Of a stretch of DNA of 64,000 nucleotides, positions 1 to 35,203 are shown one piece after another (position 1 is the first letter of the stretch; each line of letters begins with the position of its first letter). Origin of the DNA: Anaerolineales bacterium (GTDB lineage Bacteria > Chloroflexota > Anaerolineae > Anaerolineales > UBA11579); the NCBI GenBank assembly GCA_016932165.1, contig JAFGDK010000103.1:28068-92067 (forward strand), read 5' to 3'. The position numbers and the translations under genes were made by a program. The notes under the pieces are model-generated. The model worked only from the letters and a program-made list of their open reading frames with translations. It was not told where the DNA came from and made no database searches.

Positions 1-1157
1 ACAATCCCATCATGGGTTATATCTCTGACCGCACTAAAACTCGTTGGGGACGGCGTATCCCATACATCAAATTCGGTGCGGTTCCTTTTGCCCTGGCCCT
101 GATCTTCATCTGGCTTGCCCCATTCGATGGGGTTGAGCAACCTACAGCCTTGGCGCTGTGGATGATCTTCGTACCGTTTATCTGGGAAGGGCTGGGAACC
201 ATGACCACCACCGCCTATTACGCCCTGCTCCCCGAAATGTTCAATACCTACGAGGATCGCACCAAGGTGGCGGTGAGTATGAATATCATCCAGGTGGTGG
301 GCTTGTTCATCGGCATGGCTGGCACCCCAATCCTCACCGATACAATCGGATGGGTACCCACAGCTGCGATTTTCGCCGTGATCACCATCATTACCTACTA
401 TATCGGACTCCCGGGAATGTTCGAACGGGAAAGCTCAGTGAAAGCTGAGAGCATCCCTTTCTTCGATGCCTTGAAGTACACCTTCATCAACCGGAGCTTT
501 GTCAGCCTGGTGATTTCACAAACATTCCGTTTTGTTGGCACCGGTACGCTCACCACCGGTGTATTATTTTATGTCAAATACAGCCTGGAGGCGGATGAAG
601 GATTCGGTTCAGTGATTCTCGGGGTAGCATTCATTGTTTCTGCATTGTCCCTGGAATTGTGGCGCCGGGTGATATCCAGCCGCTTTGAAGCCCGCACCAC
701 CCTGATGATTGCCAATGCAGTGATGGGCATTTCTATCATCCCGATGGGCTTTGTCCGCAGCACGGTGACAGCAGCCATCGCGGCGGCTGGATTGGGATTG
801 GGTTTAGCGGGACTGATCCTAATGGGAGACGTGATCGTTGCCGATGTGATAGACGAGGATGAGGTGGTCACCGGGCAGCGGAGGGAGGGCATGTACTTCG
901 GCATGAGCAAGTTCATCATGAAATTAAGCGGGTCGATTGTCGCCCTGTGGTTCGGATGGATTGCCCCCGCATATGGATACAACTCCGCGCTGGAAGTCCA
1001 ACCGGAAACCGTAGGCGCCGGCTTCCGCGTCTTCCTCACCGCGCCTGTGGTGGTCAGCTCCATCCTGGCAATTATTTCCCTCTTCTTCTACCCGCTGTAT
1101 GGTGAGAGACTCAAACAAGTCAAGGAAACCCTGGCAGCTCGCCGCTCAATTGAATGA
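1..1157 (+). CDS. GPH/MFS-family glycoside:cation symporter (MelB-like), N-terminally truncated by the window edge
   Basis: 12 TM-like hydrophobic segments. The motif DRTKTRWGRRIPYI matches the GPH-family loop 2-3 signature D-R-T-x-T-R-x-G-R-R-R-P. The frame is open back to position 3, so roughly 60 aa of N-terminus lie outside the window. Confidence 0.7.
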   Translation, partial: NPIMGYISDRTKTRWGRRIPYIKFGAVPFALALIFIWLAPFDGVEQPTALALWMIFVPFIWEGLGTMTTTAYYALLPEMFNTYEDRTKVAVSMNIIQVVGLFIGMAGTPILTDTIGWVPTAAIFAVITIITYYIGLPGMFERESSVKAESIPFFDALKYTFINRSFVSLVISQTFRFVGTGTLTTGVLFYVKYSLEADEGFGSVILGVAFIVSALSLELWRRVISSRFEARTTLMIANAVMGISIIPMGFVRSTVTAAIAAAGLGLGLAGLILMGDVIVADVIDEDEVVTGQRREGMYFGMSKFIMKLSGSIVALWFGWIAPAYGYNSALEVQPETVGAGFRVFLTAPVVVSSILAIISLFFYPLYGERLKQVKETLAARRSIE

Positions 1158-1391
1158 CCCCCCAGTGAACTTCTAAAATTTACAGACAGTTTTCAAACTG
1201 TTTGCTGCCAGCTGACTGCTGCCAAAAACACCCTTCTCCCCACAGACAGGCTTGGGGAGAAGGGCTAAGTAAGGAGGGTCAGATTACCTGGTGGAGGGAC
1301 CAGTTCATCTTCTATTCAATTAAGTTCCAGCAGCCAAGACCCAGCACAAACATGCCCAGTCGAGCTGTTGATCAGATTCTGGCTAAAACTC

Positions 1392-2537
1392 CTACTTATC
1401 TACGCGCTTGCGTAAAAAGGTGGGGATATCCAGGTCTTCACGATTGAATGCAGCTGGTTCCAGTTCCAGCGGTTGGCGCACCTGTGTCGGGCGCTGCCCT
1501 TCCATCTGTTTGGGAACTACCATCTGCTGCCCGGCAGGAGCAGCCGCTGTCCGCTGTTGTCTTGGGACAACTCGCCGCGGCATGGCTGCCCGATCAAATC
1601 CGGTGGCGATCACAGTCACGCGGATCTCATCACCCATATCCGGGTCGATGACTGCGCCAAAGATCAGGTTTACATCCGGATGGGCAGTTTCCTTGATGAT
1701 CGCAGCCGCTGTGTTGACCTCAAACAAGGCCAGGTCTGGGCCGCCGGTCACATTGAAGAGAATCCCGCGGGCGCCGTCAATGGTGATATCCAACAGGTTG
1801 CTAGTGATCGCCATTTCGGCTGCCACCCGAGCGCGATCCTCACCTGAACCATGGCCGACAGCCATCAACGCGGCACCGCCCTCAGACATGATCGTCTTCA
1901 CGTCGGCAAAGTCCAGGTTGATCAACCCGGGGATGGTGATCAGTTCGGAAATACCCTGAATGCCCTGGCGTAGCACATCATCCGCCATCAAAAAGGCTTC
2001 GTTCAGGCTGGAACGTTTATCCACGATCTGGAGCAAGCGGTCATTGGGGATCACGATCAGGGTATCTACATGCTCTTTCAGTTTGGCAATCCCAGTCTCA
2101 GCGGTCTGCATGCGGCGCCCCCCCTCAAAGGTGAACGGGCGGGTAACCACACCGATCGTCAGCGCCCCGACTTCCTTGGCAATCTGGGCAACCACGGGGG
2201 CAGCGCCGGTACCGGTGCCTCCGCCAATCCCGGCAGTCACAAAGACCATGTCCGTGCCCTTCATGACTTCATATAATTCCTGGGCAGATTCCTCAGCCGC
2301 CTTACGACCATTTTCAGGGTTGCCGCCTGCGCCTAAGCCGCGGGTCAGCTTATCGCCAATCCTCACCCGGATTTGGGCCTCAGACTGCATCAGCGCCTGA
2401 GCATCTGTATTTATAGCGACAAACTCAACGCCTTGAAGACCCTCACGGATCATTCTTCCAACCGCGTTGCAGCCGCCGCCCCCTACGCCCACAACTTTAA
2501 TGCGGGCAAATGATTCTGCATTGTTCATTGTTTTCAT
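1392..2537 (-). CDS. ftsZ: cell division GTPase FtsZ
   Basis: N-terminus [12 protein letters not shown] and the tubulin signature [10 protein letters not shown]. The acidic/basic C-terminal tail ends DIPTFLRKR. Confidence 0.95.
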
Positions 2538-2622
2538 CGCGTACCTCCAAAAATACTGACTTCCTTACATATACACAATTTTTTATGTCTAATCGGCTAT
2601 TACCGCAAATTATTTTTCTATT

Positions 2623-4913: not shown

Positions 4914-6068
4914 TTACTCGTTCCTCATAAAATTTCGCTTGGTGGCATCCCGCTGCGCCTTCCTCGCCTGGGCAAATGCCACCAACCTATCTACCAATTC
5001 CTGATTTTCAACCCCGCTGGCCTTCCACAACATTGGGAACATGCTGATCGAGGTAAAACCAGGGATGGTATTCAATTCATTCAGATAGACCTCCCCGCTA
5101 TTCTTATCCAGGAAGAAATCCACCCGTGCAAGGCCGGCCAAATCGCAGGCTTTATAAGCCTTAACGGCCAGATTCCTGATCCGGTCAGCTACTGCTTCGG
5201 GGATCTCCGCGGGAATCAGCGTCTTTGAGCTGTGATCGTGATACTTGGCATCGTAGCTGTAAAACTCCTCCCCCGGAAGCACCTCACCGCAAACCGAGGC
5301 GACAGGTTGGTCGTTGCCCATCACGCTGACTTCGATCTCGCGCACCACGTGTCCCTTCTGTACAATCATCCGCCGGTCATAGGCGGATGCTTCCATCAGC
5401 CCCTCCAACAGATCAGACCGATTCTTCACCTTGCTGATGCCTACCGATGAACCCAGGTTGGCCGGTTTGACGAAGTAGGGATACTCGCCCAAGCCCTCCA
5501 CCCGGTTGATCACAGATTGCATGTCCGCTTCGATTTCAGAGCGCAGCACCAGCACGGTATCTACCACAGGAATCTGGTTGGCGCGCATCAGGTCAAAGAA
5601 AATCATCTTGTCCATCCCGGCAGCCGACCCAGTTACCCCGGAACCGACGTAAGCCAGGTCTGCCATCTCTAACAGCCCCTGAAGGGTGCCATCCTCGCCA
5701 AAGGTACCGTGCAGCACCGGGAAAACCACATCGATGTCTGTCACCTGTGACAATTGTCCAGTTTCCGAGATCACATTCAGCCCAGCATCTCCCGGCAGGG
5801 GCAGGATTACTGCCTTATCCAAACCAGAAAGGTCACCGGATTTCAATCGACCAAGCGCATCCTCACCCGTAAACCACTCGCCCTCACGGGTAATACCCAC
5901 CTGGGTAATCTCATATTTTTGCGGATCAAGTTGAGATAGCACAAACCCAGCCGATTCCAGAGAAACCGCATGCTCTCCAGATCGCCCGCCAAAGATCACT
6001 ACAATCTTGGTCTTGCTGCTGTTTTTCATGCTCCTCATCTCACTCATCCCACTCACCAACCAGCTCAA
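4914..6068 (-). CDS. ddl: D-alanine--D-alanine ligase
   Basis: KIVVIFGGRSGEHAVSLESA N-terminus and an ATP-grasp C-terminus (EVYLNELNTIPGFT). The true start is probably an internal Met at 6029-6047, just after the murB stop. Confidence 0.9.
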   Translation of the reverse strand: MSWLVSGMSEMRSMKNSSKTKIVVIFGGRSGEHAVSLESAGFVLSQLDPQKYEITQVGITREGEWFTGEDALGRLKSGDLSGLDKAVILPLPGDAGLNVISETGQLSQVTDIDVVFPVLHGTFGEDGTLQGLLEMADLAYVGSGVTGSAAGMDKMIFFDLMRANQIPVVDTVLVLRSEIEADMQSVINRVEGLGEYPYFVKPANLGSSVGISKVKNRSDLLEGLMEASAYDRRMIVQKGHVVREIEVSVMGNDQPVASVCGEVLPGEEFYSYDAKYHDHSSKTLIPAEIPEAVADRIRNLAVKAYKACDLAGLARVDFFLDKNSGEVYLNELNTIPGFTSISMFPMLWKASGVENQELVDRLVAFAQARKAQRDATKRNFMRNE

Positions 6069-27606: not shown

Positions 27607-28044
27607 ATGGAATTTTTTAACCGGTTGATACACGCACTCACCCAAAGCCACCCCATCCACCCGATGATCGTGCATTTCCCAATTGCCCTCAGCGGAGCAG
27701 CTCTGCTGTTCATTCTAATCGCCTGGGTAAGAAAAGACCGCAACTTTGAAATGATGGCCTTCGCCAACCTGGTGCTGACAGTGTTTGGCACTCTCGCCGC
27801 TGGACTCACCGGATTGTACGACAACAACCGGAATTACCTCGGAGAGGCCCCTAATGCCAACCTGAAAATTGTGCTGGCAATCCTGATGCTGGCGGTTTCA
27901 GCCCTTACCGCATTTTTGCGCATGCGCAGTCCTGAATTGCTCTTTTCAAAAGGGAAACTTTTATATCTTGCCGGTTATCTGATCAGTTTTTTGCTTGCCA
28001 TCACACTCGCCTTTTTAGGCGGCGTAATTCTATATGGCTTTTAG
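27607..28044 (+). CDS. DUF2231-family membrane protein
   Basis: HPIHPMIVHFPIAL motif and 4 TM segments. Family is commonly adjacent to cytochrome c genes. Confidence 0.6.
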   Translation: MEFFNRLIHALTQSHPIHPMIVHFPIALSGAALLFILIAWVRKDRNFEMMAFANLVLTVFGTLAAGLTGLYDNNRNYLGEAPNANLKIVLAILMLAVSALTAFLRMRSPELLFSKGKLLYLAGYLISFLLAITLAFLGGVILYGF

Positions 28045-28053
28045 GAGACAACC

Positions 28054-28566
28054 ATGAACTTTAAACATCGAATCATCACCCTTACACTGATTAGCCTGTT
28101 GGCCGTCTTAGTAGCCGGGTGCGGTGGGAAAACTGCTCCTGCCGCGAACCTGCCTGAAGAGAACCTGGCCTCTGATCCAGCGGAGATGCCCGTAGAAGAA
28201 GGCAATGTCAACCAGCCTGAAATCGAACCGGGGCCTGAACCAACGGAAGAACCAGCGCCCGCTGAAGAACAGCCCACTGTTGCGAGCGAAGTCAGCTTCG
28301 CGGCAGATGTGCTGCCCATTCTGGACAGCCGCTGCCTGAACTGCCATGGTGGCGAAAGAGTGGAAGGGGATTTTGTGCTCAGCACCTATGCCGAGCTGAT
28401 GGACGGCGGAGAAAGCGGCCCGGCAGTGATTCCCGGTGATGCTGATTCCAGCTACCTGGCTGAACTGATTTTGGCACAAGAAATGCCCAAACGCGGCCCT
28501 AAACTAACCCCGGTACAGACCCAAACGATCATTGACTGGATTAACCAGGGAGCCCCGAATAACTGA
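28054..28566 (+). CDS. lipoprotein with a single-heme PSCyt1-type (Planctomycete-type) cytochrome c domain
   Basis: Lipobox LVAGC. ADVLPILDSRCLNCHGGERVEGDFVL...GGESGPAVIPGDADSSYL...MP...LT..Q...I.DWI.QGA matches the PSCyt1 domain pattern with one CxxCH. Confidence 0.65.
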   Translation: MNFKHRIITLTLISLLAVLVAGCGGKTAPAANLPEENLASDPAEMPVEEGNVNQPEIEPGPEPTEEPAPAEEQPTVASEVSFAADVLPILDSRCLNCHGGERVEGDFVLSTYAELMDGGESGPAVIPGDADSSYLAELILAQEMPKRGPKLTPVQTQTIIDWINQGAPNN

Positions 28567-28576
28567 TCTAAAAAAA

Positions 28577-28599
28577 TCCCCTGACGGAATGTCAGGGGA
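28577..28599 (-). terminator. hairpin terminator (TCCCCTGAC-ggaat-GTCAGGGGA) followed on the minus strand by a T7 run
   Basis: Perfect 9-bp stem between convergent genes. The plus-strand A-run at 28571-28576 is a U-tract for the minus-strand transcript. Confidence 0.65.
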
Positions 28600-28619
28600 T
28601 GATCGTGACTCCCAAAAAG

Positions 28620-29876
28620 CTACACCGGCTTTAGCACCGCTACCGCCACCCCATGGATGCGGATGCAGTCTTCTTCTGCAAGCATCTGCTTGGGGAAAGC
28701 GACCTCGAAATCCTTGAAGGATGGATCTCTGCTTTCCGCCTTTATGATGATATCATCCTGCTGTTCGATATAACGTTTCAGGGTGGCTGGCAGTTTGTTG
28801 TCCACGCCTTCTACCGGGATCAATTTCGTTAATCCTTCGCTGATCTCGCCCTCCAGGCTTTGCGAGGTGAGGTCAAATACCAGCGCGGCAATATCCATAT
28901 GCAATGCAAAATTTTGCGCCCGGCAGACCACCAGATCACCATCATCGATCCCGGCAATATTCATGCTGGTCCCTCTGACTCGCAGGGCAAAATGCTCAGC
29001 GGATTGGGCCAGGTTGATCCGGCTTTCGCCCCGCTTGAGAGAGAGGACATCATATTCTTCCTCACCGATCCGCACCCGGGTGACTTCCACAAATTCATCC
29101 GGTTCCAGCCCGGGATGCACCGGATATTGAGCAGAGGGGACATAATCCAATAACGCCGAAAGTCCGGCAGGAATCTCCTCATAGACAGCAAAGAGTTCAA
29201 AAAAATTTTCAATCTTGATGGGAAATTCTGGTTTATGTTGTGAGGGCGATAGATCGGAGATCAGGTCTTCAGCAAAATCCAGTGATGTTGAGACCGTCAC
29301 GCCAGTCCCTGGAATCATATATAAATGAGGTAATTTATCATTCTCAATGGCGTATTCAAGCGCTTTGACCATAATCCTGATCTGTGACCGGTACCATTGG
29401 ATCTGATCCTTATTGGTCATGATGCTGGCGGCCAGGCTTTTAAAATGATTGATGCATTCCTGCCAGCGGTCGATGCCAACGTTATGCCTGCCGTGCGGCT
29501 GCAGCCACGATACAACTCCAAGCATCCAATTGACAACCGCAAAATAATGCACCTTCCCCCTGCCAATATCATGCATAGAAAAGTAGAACAGATCAGCCGC
29601 CTCGGAGATGTAGCCCAATTCCAATGCAATCTGGCCGCAGCGGCGCAGCGCCACCCCGCCCTCGAATTTATCCATCAATATCCGCTTGGATCTGATCCGC
29701 TCAATCTCCCGCCAAATCCGATCGGTATCATTGGATTTCTTTGCTTCTTCCAGGACCAGCAAAACTTGCTTGAGGTGTTCACTCAATCGGATTTTGTCGG
29801 TCACTAGGTCTGGGCTCCACCAGCGGGCTTCTGCAAATCCCACCCATTGATTGGCTATTTCCAGTTGGGTTGGCAT
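28620..29876 (-). CDS. protein with a C-terminal LexA/UmuD-like S24 serine autopeptidase domain and an uncharacterised ~280-aa N-terminal domain
   Basis: C-terminal LRVRGTSMNIAGIDDGDLVVC matches the S24 motif V-G-D/T-S-M-x-x-x-G-I-x-D-G-D-L-V-V. Downstream, DIAALVFD...TKL supplies the candidate catalytic Lys, and IHGVAVAVLKP matches the LexA terminal strand. I could not recognise an HTH in the N-terminal part. Confidence 0.6.
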   Translation of the reverse strand: MPTQLEIANQWVGFAEARWWSPDLVTDKIRLSEHLKQVLLVLEEAKKSNDTDRIWREIERIRSKRILMDKFEGGVALRRCGQIALELGYISEAADLFYFSMHDIGRGKVHYFAVVNWMLGVVSWLQPHGRHNVGIDRWQECINHFKSLAASIMTNKDQIQWYRSQIRIMVKALEYAIENDKLPHLYMIPGTGVTVSTSLDFAEDLISDLSPSQHKPEFPIKIENFFELFAVYEEIPAGLSALLDYVPSAQYPVHPGLEPDEFVEVTRVRIGEEEYDVLSLKRGESRINLAQSAEHFALRVRGTSMNIAGIDDGDLVVCRAQNFALHMDIAALVFDLTSQSLEGEISEGLTKLIPVEGVDNKLPATLKRYIEQQDDIIIKAESRDPSFKDFEVAFPKQMLAEEDCIRIHGVAVAVLKPV

Positions 29877-29877
29877 T

Positions 29878-31152
29878 TCATTCCTTCCCTTTCGTATCTT
29901 TCCTGTTTGAATCCTTCTTTGGATCCTTCTTCTCTTCTCCCCCAGTCATCTCACCGCTGTACAAACCAGACCAGGCATCTAGGATCTGTGCAGTACGCAG
30001 TTGAATCAGGGTCTCCAAATCCTCCGCATCGTCAATCCGCAGATCTTCCAACGCATCAATGATCCCTTTGGTCATCTCTGCCTGGGAAATTGAACGCACC
30101 GCATCCTGACGGGCGTATTCGTAAGCTTTGCCTTCCGCTTCAAGCACCATAATCTCTCCCTGCTTGGTTTTTTTCCAGCGGTTGAACCAGAAATCTTCAA
30201 TTTCTTGATCGTCGAATTTAAACACCGCGAATTCAACACTAAGCAACCGGGCCCCAATCTCCTTCAATTGCTCTCGCACTTCTGGTCCGTGCAACTCTTT
30301 GCGTAAAGCCTCCCGGGATGAAAGGGTGGCATCATGCGGGGTGAGAATTTGATCCACTGGCAAGCGATTGATATACTTTTTAATCGCCTCTTCGATAATC
30401 GTCTGGATCATCTCTGCCATCGTCAGATAAGATGTCTCAGATACAAGGCGGTTGGTTGCATATTTCCTGGCGGCCTCAACATAAGATTCGCCGCTGGCGG
30501 TATTCCCCCGGTCCTTGATCCAATCCGGCTCTCTTTCTCTCAGTTTAAATCTGAAGCGAACTCGGGGAACGATCACAGTGATCCCATCCATAGTAAGTGC
30601 CTTGATCTCATCTATCTCGTGGTAGTGATCATCAAGACTGAAGGTTTCCTGGATGAATTGATATCTGGTGATCGGATACTCGCCCTCCCCATAGACCTGG
30701 GATGTCCCCTCCAACTTTTCAAGAATAACAAGGTTTTGTGGAGAAACCTTCACATGCCCAGGACCGCCCATTTTGTCTATCAGGTTAACTTCACCGGCCT
30801 TGATCGCTTTTTTTCCGCGGTTGATCTTGATCGTTGGCTGAAGCGGGAAGGCCAATGTACAGTAAATGAAATATTCCAACGCCTCCCCCACCTTATCCAG
30901 CTCATACAGATCATTTAAATAACGGGCAGAACCGAACACAGAAACGCCCAAAGCGAGCAATACCACTGCCAGGTATCTTTCCAGCCTGAACCATGGCAAC
31001 CGCTGCCCAATGGAAAAGAATGAAATTCCAATCGCGATGAACACGGCAACAAATACTAAAATCCGCACAAAATAAGCCCCCATCCGGTCAGAAAAGAAGA
31101 ATTCAGGAATTGCGGTGGCCGCATTCTTAATAATAACTTTTACCCGGTTCAT
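29878..31152 (-). CDS. two-TM SPFH/band-7 family membrane protein (HflK/C-flotillin-like), paralogue 2
   Basis: Two N-terminal TM helices. An SPFH-like core (GGPGHVKV...ALTMDGITVIVPRVRFRFKL). C-terminal VLEAEGKAYEYARQDAVRSISQAEMTKGII resembles the HflK/prohibitin AEGEAEA coiled-coil region. A 1-nt gap separates it from the downstream gene. Confidence 0.55.
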   Translation of the reverse strand: MNRVKVIIKNAATAIPEFFFSDRMGAYFVRILVFVAVFIAIGISFFSIGQRLPWFRLERYLAVVLLALGVSVFGSARYLNDLYELDKVGEALEYFIYCTLAFPLQPTIKINRGKKAIKAGEVNLIDKMGGPGHVKVSPQNLVILEKLEGTSQVYGEGEYPITRYQFIQETFSLDDHYHEIDEIKALTMDGITVIVPRVRFRFKLREREPDWIKDRGNTASGESYVEAARKYATNRLVSETSYLTMAEMIQTIIEEAIKKYINRLPVDQILTPHDATLSSREALRKELHGPEVREQLKEIGARLLSVEFAVFKFDDQEIEDFWFNRWKKTKQGEIMVLEAEGKAYEYARQDAVRSISQAEMTKGIIDALEDLRIDDAEDLETLIQLRTAQILDAWSGLYSGEMTGGEEKKDPKKDSNRKDTKGKE

Positions 31153-32852
31153 ATGCTATCCCCTTGCTGCTTCTTCTCATCTGAAGAAAGTTTGAACCAA
31201 GCCCTAATATCTCCCAGCATCTTGACCATATTGGAGATTTCTTTATTGTTGGATCCTACTGTTGCCGCTTCCAGTGCCTGGAAGATCCGTAATATAAAGG
31301 CTGTTTTGGCTTTGTCGCTGGTAGTCAGCACATCACGCAGGGCATAGACAGTATCTTGCTGCACTCTCACTTTCGCCCGGCTGCGGATCAGGGCTGCCTC
31401 TTCCTGAAAACCGATCTCGGTCTTTGTAGCTTCTGAATTCCAGCGCGCTTTCAGGTTTTCAACAATCTGCGCCTTCACCTCTTGGTTATGCGGTTCAAGC
31501 GGACCAAAGCTGACGGATGTCACTGAAATTTCCCGTTTTCGCAGAGGACGAGGGAATTCGAGCCTGATCGGATTCTCAGTCAGCTCATGGAGATTGGAAA
31601 TCCGATCCCCCACCTTGACTTCCCCACCCCCAACCGGGACAACCAGTCTATACCCCAAAAAGCCGGATAGTTTTACTTCTTTTATAAAATCACGGCGAAG
31701 GTTTTCAATCGGGATTCGCTTCTTCTCTTCTAGCAAATCTATCGAGGAGATCCTGGTTTGGGCATCAACTGCCTCGTCATCTTCTAAAGGTTGTTCCATG
31801 TCCAAATAATCGGGGGGCGGCAGGAAAAGATCATCGAATGGATACAGGGCGATCATGTTGCTGAACTCTTCTATCGCCACCTGGATTGGCAGTTCGTACC
31901 ACATTACCATCTCACCGGTATCGGGCCGGCGCGGTTGATTCTTATAGCACTCCTGAACACGTTCCTGGTTGAACAATCCCGGGCTGTGGTAATCATCCAA
32001 CTCAAGGAGGGTGATCTCATCCAGATTTCCCGCTCTTAATTTCCGTACCACATTGATAACTTCGTTAAGCTCTTCATCTGGTAAACCACCCTGAACAATA
32101 TCGATGACCATATCCCCGCGCTCATCCAGCTCAAGGACACGCAAATCGTCCTTATCATCACCTTTTCCTGAGAGGGTCAGGTAAATGATCTCAGGCGGCG
32201 CACTGATAGAAAACTGTACCGAGATACTGGTATCAATCTCAATCCCATCTCGGGTCAGAAATGTCAGCGTGTCAGAAGTGCGGATCTGCTTACGCAGGTC
32301 CATGACCGCAGCAACCTTTTTCTTTGGCTGCCAGGTAAAGACCACCCCTGGACCATGCACCTTCGACCCAATCACCACCGCATTGTTGGAATACACCAGC
32401 GCCACACCAGGTCCTACTCTTTCTTTTTCACCCATGTGAGAGATGATCTTGCCGTCCTTCACAAAAATCAAAGGTCCGCGGTAGCCAATCATAAAGCCGC
32501 AAAAATTCAGGAACGCCTCCCAACGGTCTTTCCAGGAAGTTACCGGGAGCAGGAATTGAGAATTGAATAAATTGGCAACCAAAAGAGCCAGCATAAAAAT
32601 CCCTACTGCAGTCCACCATACCAGCCGGTATTCCCGGAAGACCTCCAGCTGAAGCAGCGAAGCGGGATCCCGAATACTGCGCAGACTTTTTACCGGATCA
32701 GCAAAAAATATCTTGGAGTTGATCATCCGGATCAGATTGTAGCGTGACAGATAGATGACCTCTTTGCCAAATAGAATCAAGGCAGCGATGATCCCCCCAA
32801 TCAGCCTGAGAATGAAATTCTTGATCCGCCGTATTCGTAGCCTTTTTTTCAT
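31149..32852 (-). CDS. two-TM SPFH/band-7 family membrane protein, paralogue 1 (long acidic C-terminal extension)
   Basis: Two N-terminal TM helices, then VGPGVALV...GPGVVFTWQPKKKVAAVMDLRKQIRTSDTLTFLTRDGIEIDTSISVQFSI. This matches the SPFH core pattern PGlhf.iP.....vd.r.q.....q...TkD.v.v.vd.vv.yrv. It overlaps the next gene by 4 nt. Confidence 0.5.
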   Translation of the reverse strand: MKKRLRIRRIKNFILRLIGGIIAALILFGKEVIYLSRYNLIRMINSKIFFADPVKSLRSIRDPASLLQLEVFREYRLVWWTAVGIFMLALLVANLFNSQFLLPVTSWKDRWEAFLNFCGFMIGYRGPLIFVKDGKIISHMGEKERVGPGVALVYSNNAVVIGSKVHGPGVVFTWQPKKKVAAVMDLRKQIRTSDTLTFLTRDGIEIDTSISVQFSISAPPEIIYLTLSGKGDDKDDLRVLELDERGDMVIDIVQGGLPDEELNEVINVVRKLRAGNLDEITLLELDDYHSPGLFNQERVQECYKNQPRRPDTGEMVMWYELPIQVAIEEFSNMIALYPFDDLFLPPPDYLDMEQPLEDDEAVDAQTRISSIDLLEEKKRIPIENLRRDFIKEVKLSGFLGYRLVVPVGGGEVKVGDRISNLHELTENPIRLEFPRPLRKREISVTSVSFGPLEPHNQEVKAQIVENLKARWNSEATKTEIGFQEEAALIRSRAKVRVQQDTVYALRDVLTTSDKAKTAFILRIFQALEAATVGSNNKEISNMVKMLGDIRAWFKLSSDEKKQQGDSI

Positions 32853-32915
32853 CTAAATAGTACTATCACTAGAGGCGCGCCAGACAGGTTGGTATTTCAT
32901 ACCGAATCAGAATAC

Positions 32916-32952
32916 CTGTTCTCATTTTAGGAAGATTTACCCCTTACGTCAA
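32916..32952 (-). promoter_or_regulatory. near-consensus sigma70 promoter TTGACG-N17-TAAAAT for the SPFH/S24 operon, followed by a 5'-UTR hairpin
   Basis: The minus strand reads TTGATTGACGtaaggggtaaatcttccTAAAATgag. -35 at 32947-32952 and -10 at 32924-32929. The inverted repeat CAGGTATT...AATACC..CCTG at 32880-32915 lies between the promoter and the start codon. Confidence 0.45.
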
Positions 32953-32985
32953 TCAAAACCAGCTTCCAGTTCTCCCCCAGATAAT

Positions 32986-34410
32986 TTACGAGACAAGCTT
33001 GAGCAGCGCCTGCCAGATGCGCACCATCGCCCAGGTGTCTAATTTGCAGTACGCCAGAAGGTGCTGCCGCATCTGATTATATGCAACTGAGTCCATTTCC
33101 CCAGACATCATCTCTGCCCAGGCCAGCATAGCAGCGTCCCCGCTGGAGATCACCAGCTCTTCATAGGACAGGTCTGGCGCCAGCACCGGAAGCACATTTT
33201 TAATCGAAGCGCTGCCATGGAAATCGGGGTGGAGATAATATCCTTTTGAAAAAACTTCCATCAGATCAAAAATCCGATCATTTGCCGAGTGCAGGCCTTC
33301 GGCATACTGGGGATGCAAAACCGCCATCTCCCGATTGCGTCCGGCCTCAAACGATCGGTTCCACACGATCACAGAGCCAGTAGGGCTTATCTTGTCCAGC
33401 AAATCAGCCGCCAGCCGCAGAGACGGGTCTTCTGGCTCCGTGGCCAGATACTCGTAATGAACTGGGGCAGACCCCAGCGCTTCAAATAGATGCAGCGAGT
33501 ATTGGAACACGATATGCTGGTGAGGTGCGTAGCCATCATACCAAGGTACAGCCGGGTTATAGGTCTCGTAGTCCAGAAAGGATAGCGGGAAAACCATCTG
33601 ATCCAGCGCCGCGATCAACTGATCATGGTCAATTACCGGCATTCCGGCCTTGACCACATCCGCGTGGCGCGCCTGGATTACGGTCAGATTAAAATCGGAG
33701 GGGATATCGACAATCGCGGTGATCCCGGCATCTCGCAAGGTTTTAGCCTTGCTCCCAATCCGAGGAAGATTATAGATGGAGTGGTTTGGCAGGTTTGGGT
33801 GACAGAGTTGCGGGCAAGGGCATTCTTTGGGTTTTAAACAGGTCTCAATCCCATCGGGAGAATCCGCCTTCGCTGTCTGCCAGGCCGCCTCCCGCCCTGC
33901 CTTAAGTTCCTCGCATAGTTCGATGATTGGGCCACTGACCTTCTCAATCACAAAAAGCGCGTCAAGTTCTACTTCTCCCTCCCGCCGGTACTGCTTGTTT
34001 AAGTGCAGCAAATAGGTATCCCGCACTTTGAAATTGGCTAATGCCACCAATCGCTGAAAAGCCGCATCCAGCAAGTGCTCCTTTCTGATCGAACTGCCGG
34101 ACTTGATCTCATAGATATCCCATGCATGCTCATCAGGATAATATACTGCCGCATCCAACCGGGCAAAAAAATGCCGGTCACCTAATTCGATCTCAAAATG
34201 CACCTGTGCATCGGGGTAGTCCTGACTGATTTTATTGCGCAAATAAACCTGGGCGCAATCCTGCACAGCCCGGCCCTGGGCCCTTAGATGCTGGTCAAAG
34301 GCTGAGGGTTCAACTTCTTCAAGCCGGTCGTGTTTTTCCGCCCACAGGTGCATGGGCGAGTCTAAATACAGCAGATAATCGGTTTTGGTGAGAATATTAG
34401 CCTTGTTCAA
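32986..34410 (-). CDS. DUF2779-family protein (PD-(D/E)xK nuclease-like N-domain plus a C-terminal exonuclease-like domain)
   Basis: N-terminus LTKTDYLLYLDSPMHLWAEKHDRLEEVEPSAFDQHLRAQGRAV matches the DUF2779 pattern SKSdfl.yl.CPk.LWL.kh.pe......e....f..G.evg. Length 474 aa. Confidence 0.55.
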   Translation of the reverse strand: MNKANILTKTDYLLYLDSPMHLWAEKHDRLEEVEPSAFDQHLRAQGRAVQDCAQVYLRNKISQDYPDAQVHFEIELGDRHFFARLDAAVYYPDEHAWDIYEIKSGSSIRKEHLLDAAFQRLVALANFKVRDTYLLHLNKQYRREGEVELDALFVIEKVSGPIIELCEELKAGREAAWQTAKADSPDGIETCLKPKECPCPQLCHPNLPNHSIYNLPRIGSKAKTLRDAGITAIVDIPSDFNLTVIQARHADVVKAGMPVIDHDQLIAALDQMVFPLSFLDYETYNPAVPWYDGYAPHQHIVFQYSLHLFEALGSAPVHYEYLATEPEDPSLRLAADLLDKISPTGSVIVWNRSFEAGRNREMAVLHPQYAEGLHSANDRIFDLMEVFSKGYYLHPDFHGSASIKNVLPVLAPDLSYEELVISSGDAAMLAWAEMMSGEMDSVAYNQMRQHLLAYCKLDTWAMVRIWQALLKLVS

Positions 34411-34798
34411 ATGCCGCTATCGCCTCCCGCCAGGATTCTGGCACTGGAATCGTCAGATCGTCTTGATAATCATATGCCACCAGCACGGTTTCAGCCGAGG
34501 CGTACAACGTCTTCTCCTCTAGGTCGACGATGCAGTGTTCAAAGGTCAGCGATTTGTTCCCGATGTAAGACACGCGTACCCCGACCTTGATCTGATCGTC
34601 CAGAAAGGCAGGTTTATGGTAGGTGATATGGATATCTACAATGATCACCCCGACATTGACAGACAGCCCCAGGCGCTTCCCATAGGCGATGCGGGCATCT
34701 TCCAGGAAGCTGAGGTATCGAGCATTGTTTACATGCTGACGCGTCCCCAAGTCAGCATAGCGTATGGCAACAGGATGGAAAAATTTAAACTCAATCAC
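34397..34798 (-). CDS. hotdog-fold acyl-CoA thioesterase (4HBT/YbgC family)
   Basis: FHPVAIRYADLGTRQHVNNARYLSFLE...thioesterase core. The ORF is open to 34939 with no internal ATG. The GTG at 34798 with upstream AAGG gives a typical ~134-aa product. 14-nt overlap with the DUF2779 gene. Confidence 0.6.
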   Translation of the reverse strand: MIEFKFFHPVAIRYADLGTRQHVNNARYLSFLEDARIAYGKRLGLSVNVGVIIVDIHITYHKPAFLDDQIKVGVRVSYIGNKSLTFEHCIVDLEEKTLYASAETVLVAYDYQDDLTIPVPESWREAIAAFEQG

Positions 34799-35203
34799 AA
34801 TATAGATTATACCTTGATCAATCTCACAACCTAGCAGCCTGATGGTGCTGGGACAGACAGCTGGTCTGATCCTCCTGCTCAATACCCGCGTTGCTGGGGT
34901 TCGCACTCTGGGGATGGCGACAATCACCTGGCTTTTCACCTGCGCCGACTGTTTATTTGCCGTCTGCTTTGCTGGATTGCTGAAAAAACGTGGGGGTGGC
35001 GCCCGCCGAACCCCCCACAGGTGCTGGTATTCATCATGGCTGCAATGATTCTATCCTGCACCTTTCAAATTTGTTAAGCCAGGGTTGATCACTGCCTACT
35101 ATAATAATCTATGCAGAGGGGGCATTTCTCTCAAATCGGGATTTATTCTGTATAAGCCCTCCCGTCTGACAAAACTATACGCAAATAATAGTGGAGGCAA
35201 GCC

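Follow-up and report, generated by a model that had tools for sequence, protein, structure and literature searches.

Two SPFH-type membrane proteins and a soluble TPR–S24 protein are encoded by a conserved three-gene operon of Chloroflexota

Three adjacent genes, here called A, B and C, form a self-contained operon with conservation in Chloroflexota, for the most part in MAGs that bear the name Anaerolineales. A and B encode membrane proteins of the SPFH type, B as judged by its modelled fold and A probably so from sequence comparison, and C encodes a soluble protein that joins a TPR domain to an S24 peptidase domain of the LexA/UmuD type with an intact Ser/Lys dyad. In this anatomy, by which we mean the identities of the parts and their belonging together, we have high confidence. 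Our best reading is that the trio is a variant of the theme of SPFH protein plus protease, in which the pairing with an S24 protein is without earlier description in the literature searched. Throughout, "the window" is the whole stretch of DNA analysed (64,000 nt), and positions and strands follow its numbering (Table 1).

The genes run in the order A-B-C and are tightly packed between a promoter and a terminator, with a 4-nt overlap at the A/B junction and a 1-nt gap at the B/C junction; all three open reading frames lie where a sequence-only reading of this DNA had placed them. A G+C-rich hairpin followed by a run of T residues begins 20 nt past the stop codon of C and marks the end of the operon. 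The same gene order was seen in nine or more distinct genomic contexts, of which all the named ones are Chloroflexota MAGs, and the trio is colinear at every locus with enough flanking sequence. Junctions are always 61 nt or shorter and are often ATGA overlaps. Protein identity across the loci, where it was reported, ranges from 27 to 56%, with L003 and the P0034 locus at the distant end (27–31%); L017–L021 are additional remote loci. The proposal that two SPFH membrane proteins and an S24-domain protein make up one conserved operon is supported. At 50% identity the family falls into at least 61 clusters, and it appears to be confined to Chloroflexota.

Table 1. Positions of the operon, its parts and its upstream neighbours in the window
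Feature	Position	Strand	Basis or remark
DUF2779 gene, upstream of A	32986-34410	-	
Thioesterase gene, upstream	34397-34939	-	
Conserved promoter block	32909..32972	-	sequence, promoter scan, comparison of related loci
Near-palindrome AGAACAGGTATTCT	32922-32909	-	candidate operator around transcription start
Gene A, 567 aa	31149..32852	-	ORF; Pfam Band_7; hhalign to B
Gene B, 424 aa	29878..31152	-	ORF; AlphaFold model; Foldseek
Gene C, 418 aa	28620..29876	-	ORF; AlphaFold model; orthologue alignments
C residues 1-180, TPR domain	29337..29876	-	eight helices forming four TPR repeats
C residues 181-263, variable disordered linker	29088..29336	-	pLDDT; alignments
A237-G238, predicted self-cleavage site in E-E-I-P-A-G	29168-29163	-	conservation in linker
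C residues 264-418 and stop codon, LexA/UmuD-type S24 beta-domain	28620..29087	-	
Catalytic Ser304 in G-T-S-M	28967-28965	-	invariant in alignments
Catalytic Lys367 in T-L-K-R	28778-28776	-	invariant in alignments
Terminator-like hairpin and TTTTTTT	28576..28600	-	10-bp stem, 6 G-C pairs

Family profiles of A and B searched against PDB sequences gave no SPFH match and only chance matches to PDZ domains, so that structure prediction was needed to recognize the SPFH fold. The AlphaFold model of B (mean pLDDT 78) consists of a hydrophobic helical hairpin (helices 24–51 and 57–82, coinciding with hydropathy peaks at residues 31–49 and 57–75), an SPFH alpha/beta domain at about residues 105–310, and long coiled-coil helices (316–370 and 376–399) that lead into a disordered charged tail. 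The best 50 Foldseek matches of this model in the PDB comprise nothing but members of the SPFH family and the SPFH-like major vault protein; they include erlin, HflK/C, prohibitin, stomatin, flotillin and QmcA, with E values from 1e-9 and a probability of 1.00. The best of them align over 280–310 columns, coiled-coil helix included, and helices 316–370 and 376–399 of the model align with the coiled-coil regions of HflK/C, prohibitin and erlin. The predicted fold confirms B as an SPFH protein, and its modelled coiled-coil helices appear to be of the kind typical of SPFH proteins that form cages or rings.

Gene A is a more divergent case. Its product has a basic N-terminus followed by hydrophobic segments at residues 10–28 and 77–95 in a hydropathy scan, and a divergent SPFH-type domain interrupted by two large insertions (about residues 230–300 and 345–435). 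Against Pfam Band_7 it gives a partial match of 27.5 bits, above the cut-off of 23.6, but B, at 23.5 bits, falls just below. A and B show no similarity in a pairwise BLASTP comparison (E 2.5). At the profile level, family A aligns with family B, for which 26 homologues were collected, over 303 columns (hhalign probability 97.9%, E 5e-13). These comparisons confirm the two as very distant paralogues, their kinship being detectable only between profiles, and this homology to B together with the one partial Pfam match identifies A as a probable SPFH protein. Each protein has a predicted N-terminal membrane anchor of two hydrophobic segments, called by a crude hydropathy scan and supported by extended orthologous reading frames, in which the Arg/Lys-rich N-terminus and first segment of A are kept, and in B also by the modelled helices. 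The description of A and B as a paralogous pair of two-TM SPFH proteins is confirmed for the fold of B and supported for the membrane segments, with the correction that the paralogy is very distant.

The product of gene C had been proposed to end in an S24 domain, and it does. Pfam Peptidase_S24 matches at 33.3 bits, over residues 290–333 only; the family profile finds LexA among PDB sequences (E 7e-15), and the S24 core resembles LexA and UmuD most closely. The AlphaFold model resolves the 418 residues into a TPR domain, a disordered linker (pLDDT below 50 at residues 193–263) and a LexA-like beta domain with the S24 fold. Ser304 and Lys367 do not vary in alignments A1, A4 and A6, and the motifs G-x-S-M and [ST]-L-K-[RL] occur in all 15 orthologues; the S24 domain also carries a lineage-specific insertion at about residues 333–362. 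Conserved positions of the TPR domain are W11, C80, H110, W117, G120, W124, W138, W161 and Y162. No HTH was found in residues 1–180, nor any DNA-binding domain elsewhere in C, and the hydropathy scan detected no hydrophobic or TM segment. C is a soluble TPR plus S24 protein with its dyad intact.

Within the otherwise hypervariable linker of C one feature is invariant or nearly so, an A-G pair. In 13 of 15 loci it stands in the motif I-[PSA]-A-G, similar to the sites at which LexA (VAA|GEP) and lambda CI (VQA|GMFSP) are cut. From this conservation we predict A237–G238 as a candidate self-cleavage site of C. In LexA, CI and UmuD, A-G lies some 35–38 residues before the catalytic Ser, whereas in C the spacing is 52–68 residues, longer because of an extra beta-hairpin. 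C differs from these S24 proteins (MEROPS S24) also in having a four-repeat TPR domain at its N-terminus in place of a winged-helix or HTH domain, and, in the loci seen, in lying always beside two SPFH genes and never beside SOS or phage genes. The motif is missing from C of L011 and L016, both of which retain the dyad, so self-cleavage either is not family-wide or uses another site there.

With the SPFH–NfeD/STOPP operons (P. horikoshii PH1511–PH1510, E. coli QmcA–YbbJ, and B. subtilis YuaG/FloT–YuaF and YqfA–YqeZ) the trio shares a membrane-anchored SPFH scaffold whose gene stands in an operon with that of a dedicated partner, the long form of which bears a Ser-Lys dyad protease domain (PMC4208085, PMC2636767), and QmcA (8z5g) and stomatins superpose with the B model. 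It departs from them in that C has neither the NfeD OB-fold nor a ClpP/S49 fold, being instead a soluble protein of TPR and S24 (LexA-fold) domains that carries a self-cleavage motif; in that there are two paralogous SPFH genes, not one; and in that A and B resemble Pfam Band_7 in sequence only at or near the cut-off. Associations of SPFH proteins with NfeD and with FtsH are established (PMC2636767). Here, no member of the NfeD/ClpP family was matched in C or any neighbour at E values up to 1, and no FtsH gene occurs in or beside the trio at any locus examined, although an FtsH encoded elsewhere may still work with it; the place that NfeD or FtsH has in known SPFH systems is taken by C, as the sequence-only reading had pointed out.

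The adjacency of two paralogous SPFH genes recalls HflK/HflC–FtsH, PHB1/2, erlin1/2 and flotillin1/2, and by analogy we presume for A and B an alternating hetero-oligomeric cage with coiled-coil walls, working with a protease. Foldseek E values of B against HflK/C structures 7vhq, 7wi3 and 9cz2 run from 2e-9 to 1e-7. HflK and HflC, however, have one TM segment and periplasmic SPFH domains, whereas in A and B the hydrophobic segments number two and the SPFH domain is predicted to lie in the cytoplasm, and C, in contrast to FtsH, is an ATP-independent, predicted self-cleaving partner. NCBIfam gave nothing informative for A, B or C and no HflK/HflC match for A or B. B. subtilis PspA–YdjG/H/I (SamGHI) and other Band-7 stress operons likewise place an SPFH protein in a small operon with putative membrane-stress signalling (bioRxiv 10.64898/2026.02.06.704340); the trio has no PspA, YdjG/H or zinc-ribbon partner, and those systems are not known to include an S24 protein. 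The combination of SPFH and S24 proteins, flagged beforehand as unfamiliar, is not described in PADLOC, NCBIfam, Pfam or the literature searched, which was queried also for TPR-S24 proteins, SPFH defence and LexA-like proteins lacking a DNA-binding domain.

We propose that A and B together build a hetero-oligomeric SPFH scaffold after the manner of these known pairs; the frequent 4-nt overlaps suggest coupled synthesis. The SPFH domains of both would face the cytoplasm, since A begins with a strongly basic stretch, after which come two membrane passes (positive-inside rule). C would dock through its TPR domain on the A/B assembly or on a client held there, and its S24 domain would cut its own linker at A237–G238, as LexA, lambda CI and UmuD cut themselves, parting the TPR tether from the protease core. 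The linker is modelled at low confidence, and the docking of A237–G238 into the active site is part of the proposal. LexA reaches its cleavable conformation only with RecA*. Cleavage of C may, by analogy, be gated by a partner, for which the state of the A/B scaffold and a ligand of the TPR domain are candidates. The result would be an irreversible switch at the membrane or, alternatively, a regulated adaptor and protease serving the scaffold, with C in the role that NfeD/STOPP or FtsH have for other SPFH proteins. For anatomy and mechanism blended—an SPFH hetero-oligomer that faces the cytoplasm and has a dedicated S24 partner, tethered through its TPR domain and processing itself—we consider the chances even. 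The mechanism by itself, scaffold-docked and partner-gated self-cleavage, we hold only tentatively, as a possibility. The idea of a stress- or damage-triggered switch is plausible; its most specific form, in which the A/B cage, in a defined assembly or stress state (from membrane damage, lipid perturbation or overload with clients), would serve as the co-protease that licenses cleavage of C as RecA* does for LexA, is on balance unlikely.

Were the scaffold to act as co-protease, this would be the first case of S24 autoproteolytic signalling gated by the state of the membrane and independent of RecA, and the first in which an SPFH complex has an irreversible read-out of its own. SPFH proteins occur throughout cellular life as HflK/C, prohibitins, stomatins, flotillins and erlins, and the function of their cages and their cross-talk with proteases are still debated. 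If the proposal is true, the module offers a simple system for questions about SPFH signals, with a single cleavage event as a read-out that is easy to score, and the use of LexA-type autoproteases would extend beyond DNA-binding repressors and UmuD. Chloroflexota are hard to culture, which limits the immediate reach of the family.

The Ser/Lys site of C might instead work in trans. C would then be a processing protease for the scaffold akin to NfeD/STOPP, its TPR domain binding A or B and its active site trimming their tails or insertions so as to control assembly or disassembly, with self-cleavage secondary or absent. UmuD is capable of intermolecular cleavage, A and B offer disordered charged tails and, in A, large insertions, and the dyad persists in L011 and L016 where the A-G motif is absent. 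To our knowledge, however, every S24 member characterised so far essentially processes itself; in the linker of C nothing is conserved more strongly than the LexA/CI-like A-G motif, and the variable tails of A and B showed no conserved A-G or similar motif. There is precedent in PH1510: its Ser-Lys dyad protease domain cuts the stomatin encoded in the same operon, PH1511, in the C-terminal region (PMC4208085). On this evidence we judge a trans-acting protease to be unlikely.

The block upstream of A is ordered as GAACTG...TTTTG, a −35 element TTGACG (32952-32947), a 17-nt spacer, a −10 element TAAAAT (32929-32924) and the near-palindrome AGAACAGGTATTCT. Promoter-like matches are frequent in the region (18 observed against 9.3 expected from shuffles), so a lone match carries little weight. 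The promoter that had been called from the sequence (TTGACG-N17-TAAAAT, 32952..32924, minus strand) has comparative backing: TTGACG-N17-TAMAATGA is identical, base for base, upstream of A in nine related loci (L001, L002, L008, L009 and L012–L016), and the flanking blocks are conserved there as well. The near-palindrome has diverged in L008, L012 and L016. A search of the window and 276 kb of loci found no other full copy of it, the sole additional site being a one-mismatch match inside L020, and Rfam gave no match in the whole window or in the leader of gene A. The near-identical promoter and candidate operator suggest control by some DNA-binding regulator outside our model of the trio.

That regulator would be LexA if the operon belonged to an SOS-type response, with C cut on RecA* filaments and LexA repressing through the palindrome, and DNA damage would thereby be coupled to a membrane or cell-envelope response. 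We regard this as decidedly unlikely. It would suit the nearness of the S24 core to LexA and UmuD, and directly past the −10 box AGAACAGGTATTCT reads GAAC-N4-ATTC, one base off the LexA box GAAC-N4-GTTC, a consensus of Firmicutes and Actinobacteria that may not be that of Anaerolineae, variants being reported for Chloroflexi (PMC4951493). The divergence of the near-palindrome at three loci speaks against it, and the operator could be accounted for just as well by a repressor specific to the operon, there being no further full copy in the 276 kb.

At loci of 40–56% identity the trio lies in conserved synteny with glmS, a glycerol-3-phosphate-dehydrogenase-like DAO gene and a cytochrome pair, housekeeping surroundings that fit vertical descent and not a mobile island. 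The DUF2779 and thioesterase genes do lie upstream on the same strand as claimed. As parts of the module they were rejected, being absent from L003, L008, L009, L014, L017–L021 and the P0034 locus; they reflect lineage synteny and are missing from most contexts. Other candidates for a shared partner or effector (ORFs of about 150 aa, a 590-aa ORF and downstream genes at L003, L014, L017, L019 and L020) have no domain in common. The suggestion of a defence-like module fares poorly against this background. It is very unlikely that the trio serves in anti-phage defence or abortive infection, its S24 switch sensing infection and its SPFH proteins acting on the membrane: A, B and C have no match in PADLOC-DB 2.0 at E values up to 1, the trio contains no nuclease, toxin, pore-forming or other effector or output domain, its G+C content is unremarkable, and its auxiliary neighbours differ from locus to locus. 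S24 switches are nevertheless common in phage–host conflict, and some individual neighbours speak for this reading, namely a KAP-family NTPase gene directly upstream in L021, a MoxR-DUF58 pair upstream at the P0034 locus and the DUF2779 gene with its weak Cas4-like match.

Finally, that C is a LexA/CI-type transcriptional repressor lying beside two membrane proteins by chance, as annotations such as 'LexA family protein', 'SOS-response transcriptional repressor LexA' and 'phage repressor protein C with HTH and peptidase S24 domain' would have it, is so improbable that we consider it all but ruled out, because its N-terminal 180 residues form a TPR domain. Such names amount to a recurrent database misannotation, in which family members are called 'LexA repressor' although they carry no DNA-binding domain.

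Three minus-strand genes of the window encode two SPFH (Band_7) membrane proteins, A and B, and a third protein, C, that joins a TPR domain through a linker to a LexA-like S24 domain. The genes are packed as tightly as the sequence-only reading of this DNA had claimed, with a 4-nt overlap between A and B and a 1-nt gap between B and C. The G+C content of the operon (48-51%) is near that of its flanks, and C is 100% identical to the hypothetical protein JW757_11700 of an Anaerolineales MAG. The finding is real and was described largely correctly.

Features of the operon, its products and its surroundings in the window and in related loci
Feature	Locus	Position	Strand	Remarks
DUF2231 membrane protein; PSCyt1 c-type cytochrome	window	27607-28044; 28054-28566	+	convergent, downstream of C
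G+C-rich hairpin with T-run	window	28600..28576	minus	20 nt past C stop codon
Gene C	window	28620-29876	minus	ORF, 418 aa
C, N-terminal eight-helix domain (TPR)	window	residues 1-180		AlphaFold2, pLDDT 80-95
C, disordered stretch	window	residues 193-263		AlphaFold2
C, C-terminal beta-rich domain	window			AlphaFold2
Gene B	window	29878-31152	minus	ORF, 424 aa
Gene A	window	31149-32852	minus	ORF, 567 aa
Promoter-like site TTGACG-N17-TAAAAT	window	32952..32924	minus	consensus scan
Conserved promoter block	window	32909-32972	minus	GAACTG (32972) through AGAACAGGTATTCT (32922-32909)
Same block	L001; L009; L014; others	4954-4997; 711-754; 5046-5089		near-identity
DUF2779 gene	window	32986-34410	minus	DUF2779 and RNase-H-like C-terminal part
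Thioesterase ORF	window	34397-34939	minus	180 aa as given, GTG start
C orthologues with long linkers	L011; L016	1518-3140; 8334-9893
Distant-subgroup extra genes	L017/L018	1-2986; 3182-3658	minus; +
Distant-subgroup extra genes	L020	1-2956; 3169-3624
KAP-family NTPase gene	L021	1887-3146
MoxR and DUF58 genes	P0034 locus	320-2565		JGI 3300075153
Split DAO-family gene and glmS	L001/L013	10460-14086

Related loci (L001-L021) were gathered through homologues of C, homologues of B, a genome scan and distant TPR-S24 proteins. Every locus with enough flank keeps the order A-like, B-like, C-like, confirmed by tblastn and family HMMs (E 1e-60 to 1e-220), and the junctions among the three genes are at most 61 nt in all loci, often as 4-nt overlaps. 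Linkage of A, B and C is obligate. Their surroundings differ. A thioesterase and a DUF2779 gene lie upstream in the window, L001, L012 and L016, with a cytochrome pair downstream followed, except in L016, by a DAO-family gene and glmS. Elsewhere the neighbours are phoU and pho4 (L008, L011); SnoaL, carboxyltransferase and oxaloacetate decarboxylase (L009, L010); rpoC (L003); a large TPR protein and ferredoxin (L014); MoxR and DUF58 (the contig carrying the homologue P0034); a divergent third paralogue (L017, L018, L020); a histidine kinase and TetR (L019); or a KAP NTPase and an ECF sigma factor (L021). Because the surroundings vary in this way while the junctions stay so short, A-B-C is the unit; the DUF2779 and thioesterase genes, noted earlier immediately upstream on the same strand, do not belong to it. 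Wherever a source record bears a name, it is a Chloroflexota MAG (Anaerolineales, 'Chloroflexia' or 'Chloroflexi bacterium'), and as far as seen the trio is confined to that phylum.

The Pfam Band_7 matches of the membrane proteins are borderline: A reaches 27.5 bits (cut-off 23.6) over residues 146-230 only, and B, at 23.5 bits, falls just short. Since neither protein has a match in NCBIfam or PADLOC and their family profiles found no SPFH protein among PDB sequences, it was a structure prediction that decided the question of fold. In an AlphaFold2 model of B (21 homologues, mean pLDDT 78), two long hydrophobic helices at the N-terminus (24-51, 57-82) come before an alpha/beta domain, and further helices span 316-370 and 376-399. 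Without exception, the top 50 Foldseek matches of the model in the PDB belong to the SPFH family or are the SPFH-like major vault protein; among them are erlin1/2, HflK/C, prohibitin, stomatin, flotillin and QmcA. E values start from 1e-9 and the best matches align over 280-310 columns, coiled coil included. The predicted model shows the domain architecture of B, and that of A is suggested by its partial Pfam match and its homology to B.

The claim that A and B are a paralogous two-TM SPFH pair is borne out by the fold of B and by a simple hydropathy scan, in which A and B of the window have two hydrophobic segments each, and its paralogy holds at the level of profiles but not of BLASTP. Pairwise BLASTP finds no similarity (E 2.5), whereas the family profiles align over 303 columns (probability 97.9%, E 5e-13), with two large insertions in A relative to B; we therefore regard the two as distant paralogues. 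When orthologous A proteins are read from upstream starts, an Arg/Lys-rich N-terminus precedes TM1 in every closer Anaerolineales locus, so that by the positive-inside rule the N-terminus and SPFH domain of A would be cytoplasmic.

Structure prediction for C (AlphaFold2, 8 sequences, mean pLDDT 71.5) gave a TPR domain, a disordered linker and a beta domain. The S24 assignment made for the C-terminus stands: the domain there is beta-rich, and the catalytic Ser (G-T-S304-M) and Lys (T-L-K367-R) never vary across three alignments and occur in 15/15 loci. Within the hypervariable Pro/Ser/Gly-rich linker an I-[PSA]-A-G motif (A237-G238 in the window) is conspicuous, lying 52-68 residues N-terminal to the catalytic Ser in 13/15 loci. 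LexA is cleaved at VAA/GEP and lambda CI at VQA/GMFSP (slash at the cut), sites that we take the motif to resemble. The domain architecture of C is clear, with catalytic residues and cleavage-type motif intact. The motif is absent from the C orthologues of L011 and L016 (520-540 aa), which keep the Ser/Lys dyad and whose very long, strongly acidic linker exceeds that of the others by more than 100 residues; this subclade may use another cleavage site or may not self-cleave.

A 2009 survey of prokaryotic SPFH proteins distinguished twelve subfamilies, with NfeD (with or without a ClpP-like domain) and FtsH as conserved partners, and mentions neither S24 nor LexA (PMC2636767); S24 is also unmentioned in a survey of PspA-associated Band-7 operons. 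The sequence-only reading had not recognised the arrangement, and the full-text literature searched, beyond which reports may exist, yielded no link between SPFH and S24/LexA proteins and no TPR-S24 proteins. The so far uncharacterised arrangement fits best as a variation on the SPFH-plus-protease theme, with TPR-S24 as a new partner type. The closest functional precedent for an SPFH operon with a protease partner is PH1510/PH1511, in which the long NfeD/STOPP protein PH1510, a Ser-Lys dyad protease, cuts its operon partner, the stomatin PH1511 (PMC4208085).

We propose a hypothetical mechanism in which A and B would form a cytoplasm-facing hetero-oligomeric SPFH scaffold, C would attach to it through the TPR domain, and C, once licensed by the state of a partner, would cleave itself in the linker, between A237 and G238. 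Such a module would work as a switch or as a regulated adaptor, in a role comparable to that of NfeD or FtsH elsewhere among SPFH proteins. That C instead trims A or B in trans we consider unlikely.

A consensus promoter match is by itself weak evidence, and the region holds 18 such matches against 9.3 expected from shuffles. The near-consensus promoter noticed earlier is nevertheless present and phylogenetically footprinted: TTGACG-N17-TAMAATGA is identical base for base 5' of gene A in nine related loci (L001, L002, L008, L009, L012-L016), where protein identity to the window is only 35-56%, and about 64 nt of intergenic DNA around it is kept almost base for base. Directly 3' of the -10 box, AGAACAGGTATTCT forms a near-perfect 6-2-6 palindrome, AGAAYA-NN-TATTCT, that is perfect in L001. 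A search of the window and of 276 kb of related loci turned up no further copy except a single match with 1 mismatch inside L020, and we regard the palindrome as a candidate operator. Its being one base off the GAAC-N4-GTTC LexA box could point to an operon under the control of SOS and of activated RecA filaments, but this box is of the Firmicutes/Actinobacteria type and may not be the host's, and we hold such control to be distinctly unlikely. Variants of the box have been reported for Chloroflexi (PMC4951493). The binder could be either LexA or an operon-specific regulator.

The suggestion of a defence-like module is weakened by stable synteny with housekeeping genes, by the absence of an effector domain and by the absence of a PADLOC match, and we find it improbable. 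The DUF2779 protein has a weak Cas4/PD-(D/E)xK-like match at its N-terminus (PADLOC Cas4, E 0.0035); its gene accompanies that of the thioesterase in L001, L012 and L016, and only in some loci does it lie near the trio. The thioesterase stop overlaps the DUF2779 start by 14 nt, and its N-terminal extension of ~45 residues is absent from the 138-aa orthologues of L001 and L002; the true start is probably further downstream.

The DUF2231/cytochrome pair, whose PSCyt1 cytochrome has a lipoprotein-like signal and a CxxCH motif, adjoins the trio in L001, L004, L005, L008-L012 and L016, even where the genes beyond change (DAO/glmS, phoU/pho4, carboxyltransferase), and is absent from L003, L014 and L017-L021. 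Either a functional tie or merely slow decay of synteny may lie behind this. In the MAG behind L001/L013 the DAO-family gene and glmS are each broken up into several ORFs; both are intact in the window and L004, and the DAO gene is also intact in L002. Frameshifts from assembly or sequencing, rather than pseudogenes, probably account for the broken genes. In the distant subgroup (L017/L018, L020) a third A-like SPFH paralogue (546-551 aa, E 1e-30 to 1e-35 against the A profile) is transcribed divergently and followed by a gene of ~590-606 aa, and an ORF of ~150-158 aa lies directly 5' of gene A, the latter two without a Pfam match. The KAP-family P-loop NTPase gene of L021 ends 4 nt 5' of gene A, beside a divergent ECF sigma/anti-sigma pair, and at the P0034 locus genes for a MoxR AAA+ protein and DUF58 precede a 761-aa A-like gene.

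C matches no HTH family and scores 25 bits against the NCBIfam lexA equivalog model (cut-off 111), and is therefore not a LexA/CI-type repressor; that it is a misplaced repressor is scarcely credible, being excluded by its fold. Homologues P0005, P0045, P0165, P0166 and P0128 are publicly named 'LexA family protein', 'SOS-response transcriptional repressor LexA' or 'phage repressor protein C with HTH', names that are probably misleading because the N-terminal domain is TPR and an HTH is undetectable. Searched alone against 1.8 billion cluster representatives, the TPR domain matched 127 clusters: 61 are TPR plus S24 and the rest TPR-only proteins or fragments. Among the roughly half without S24 (P0044, P0047, P0055, P0059 and others), many proteins are of ~330 aa with a similar TPR region at the C-terminus, and others are of ~170-190 or ~650-660 aa.
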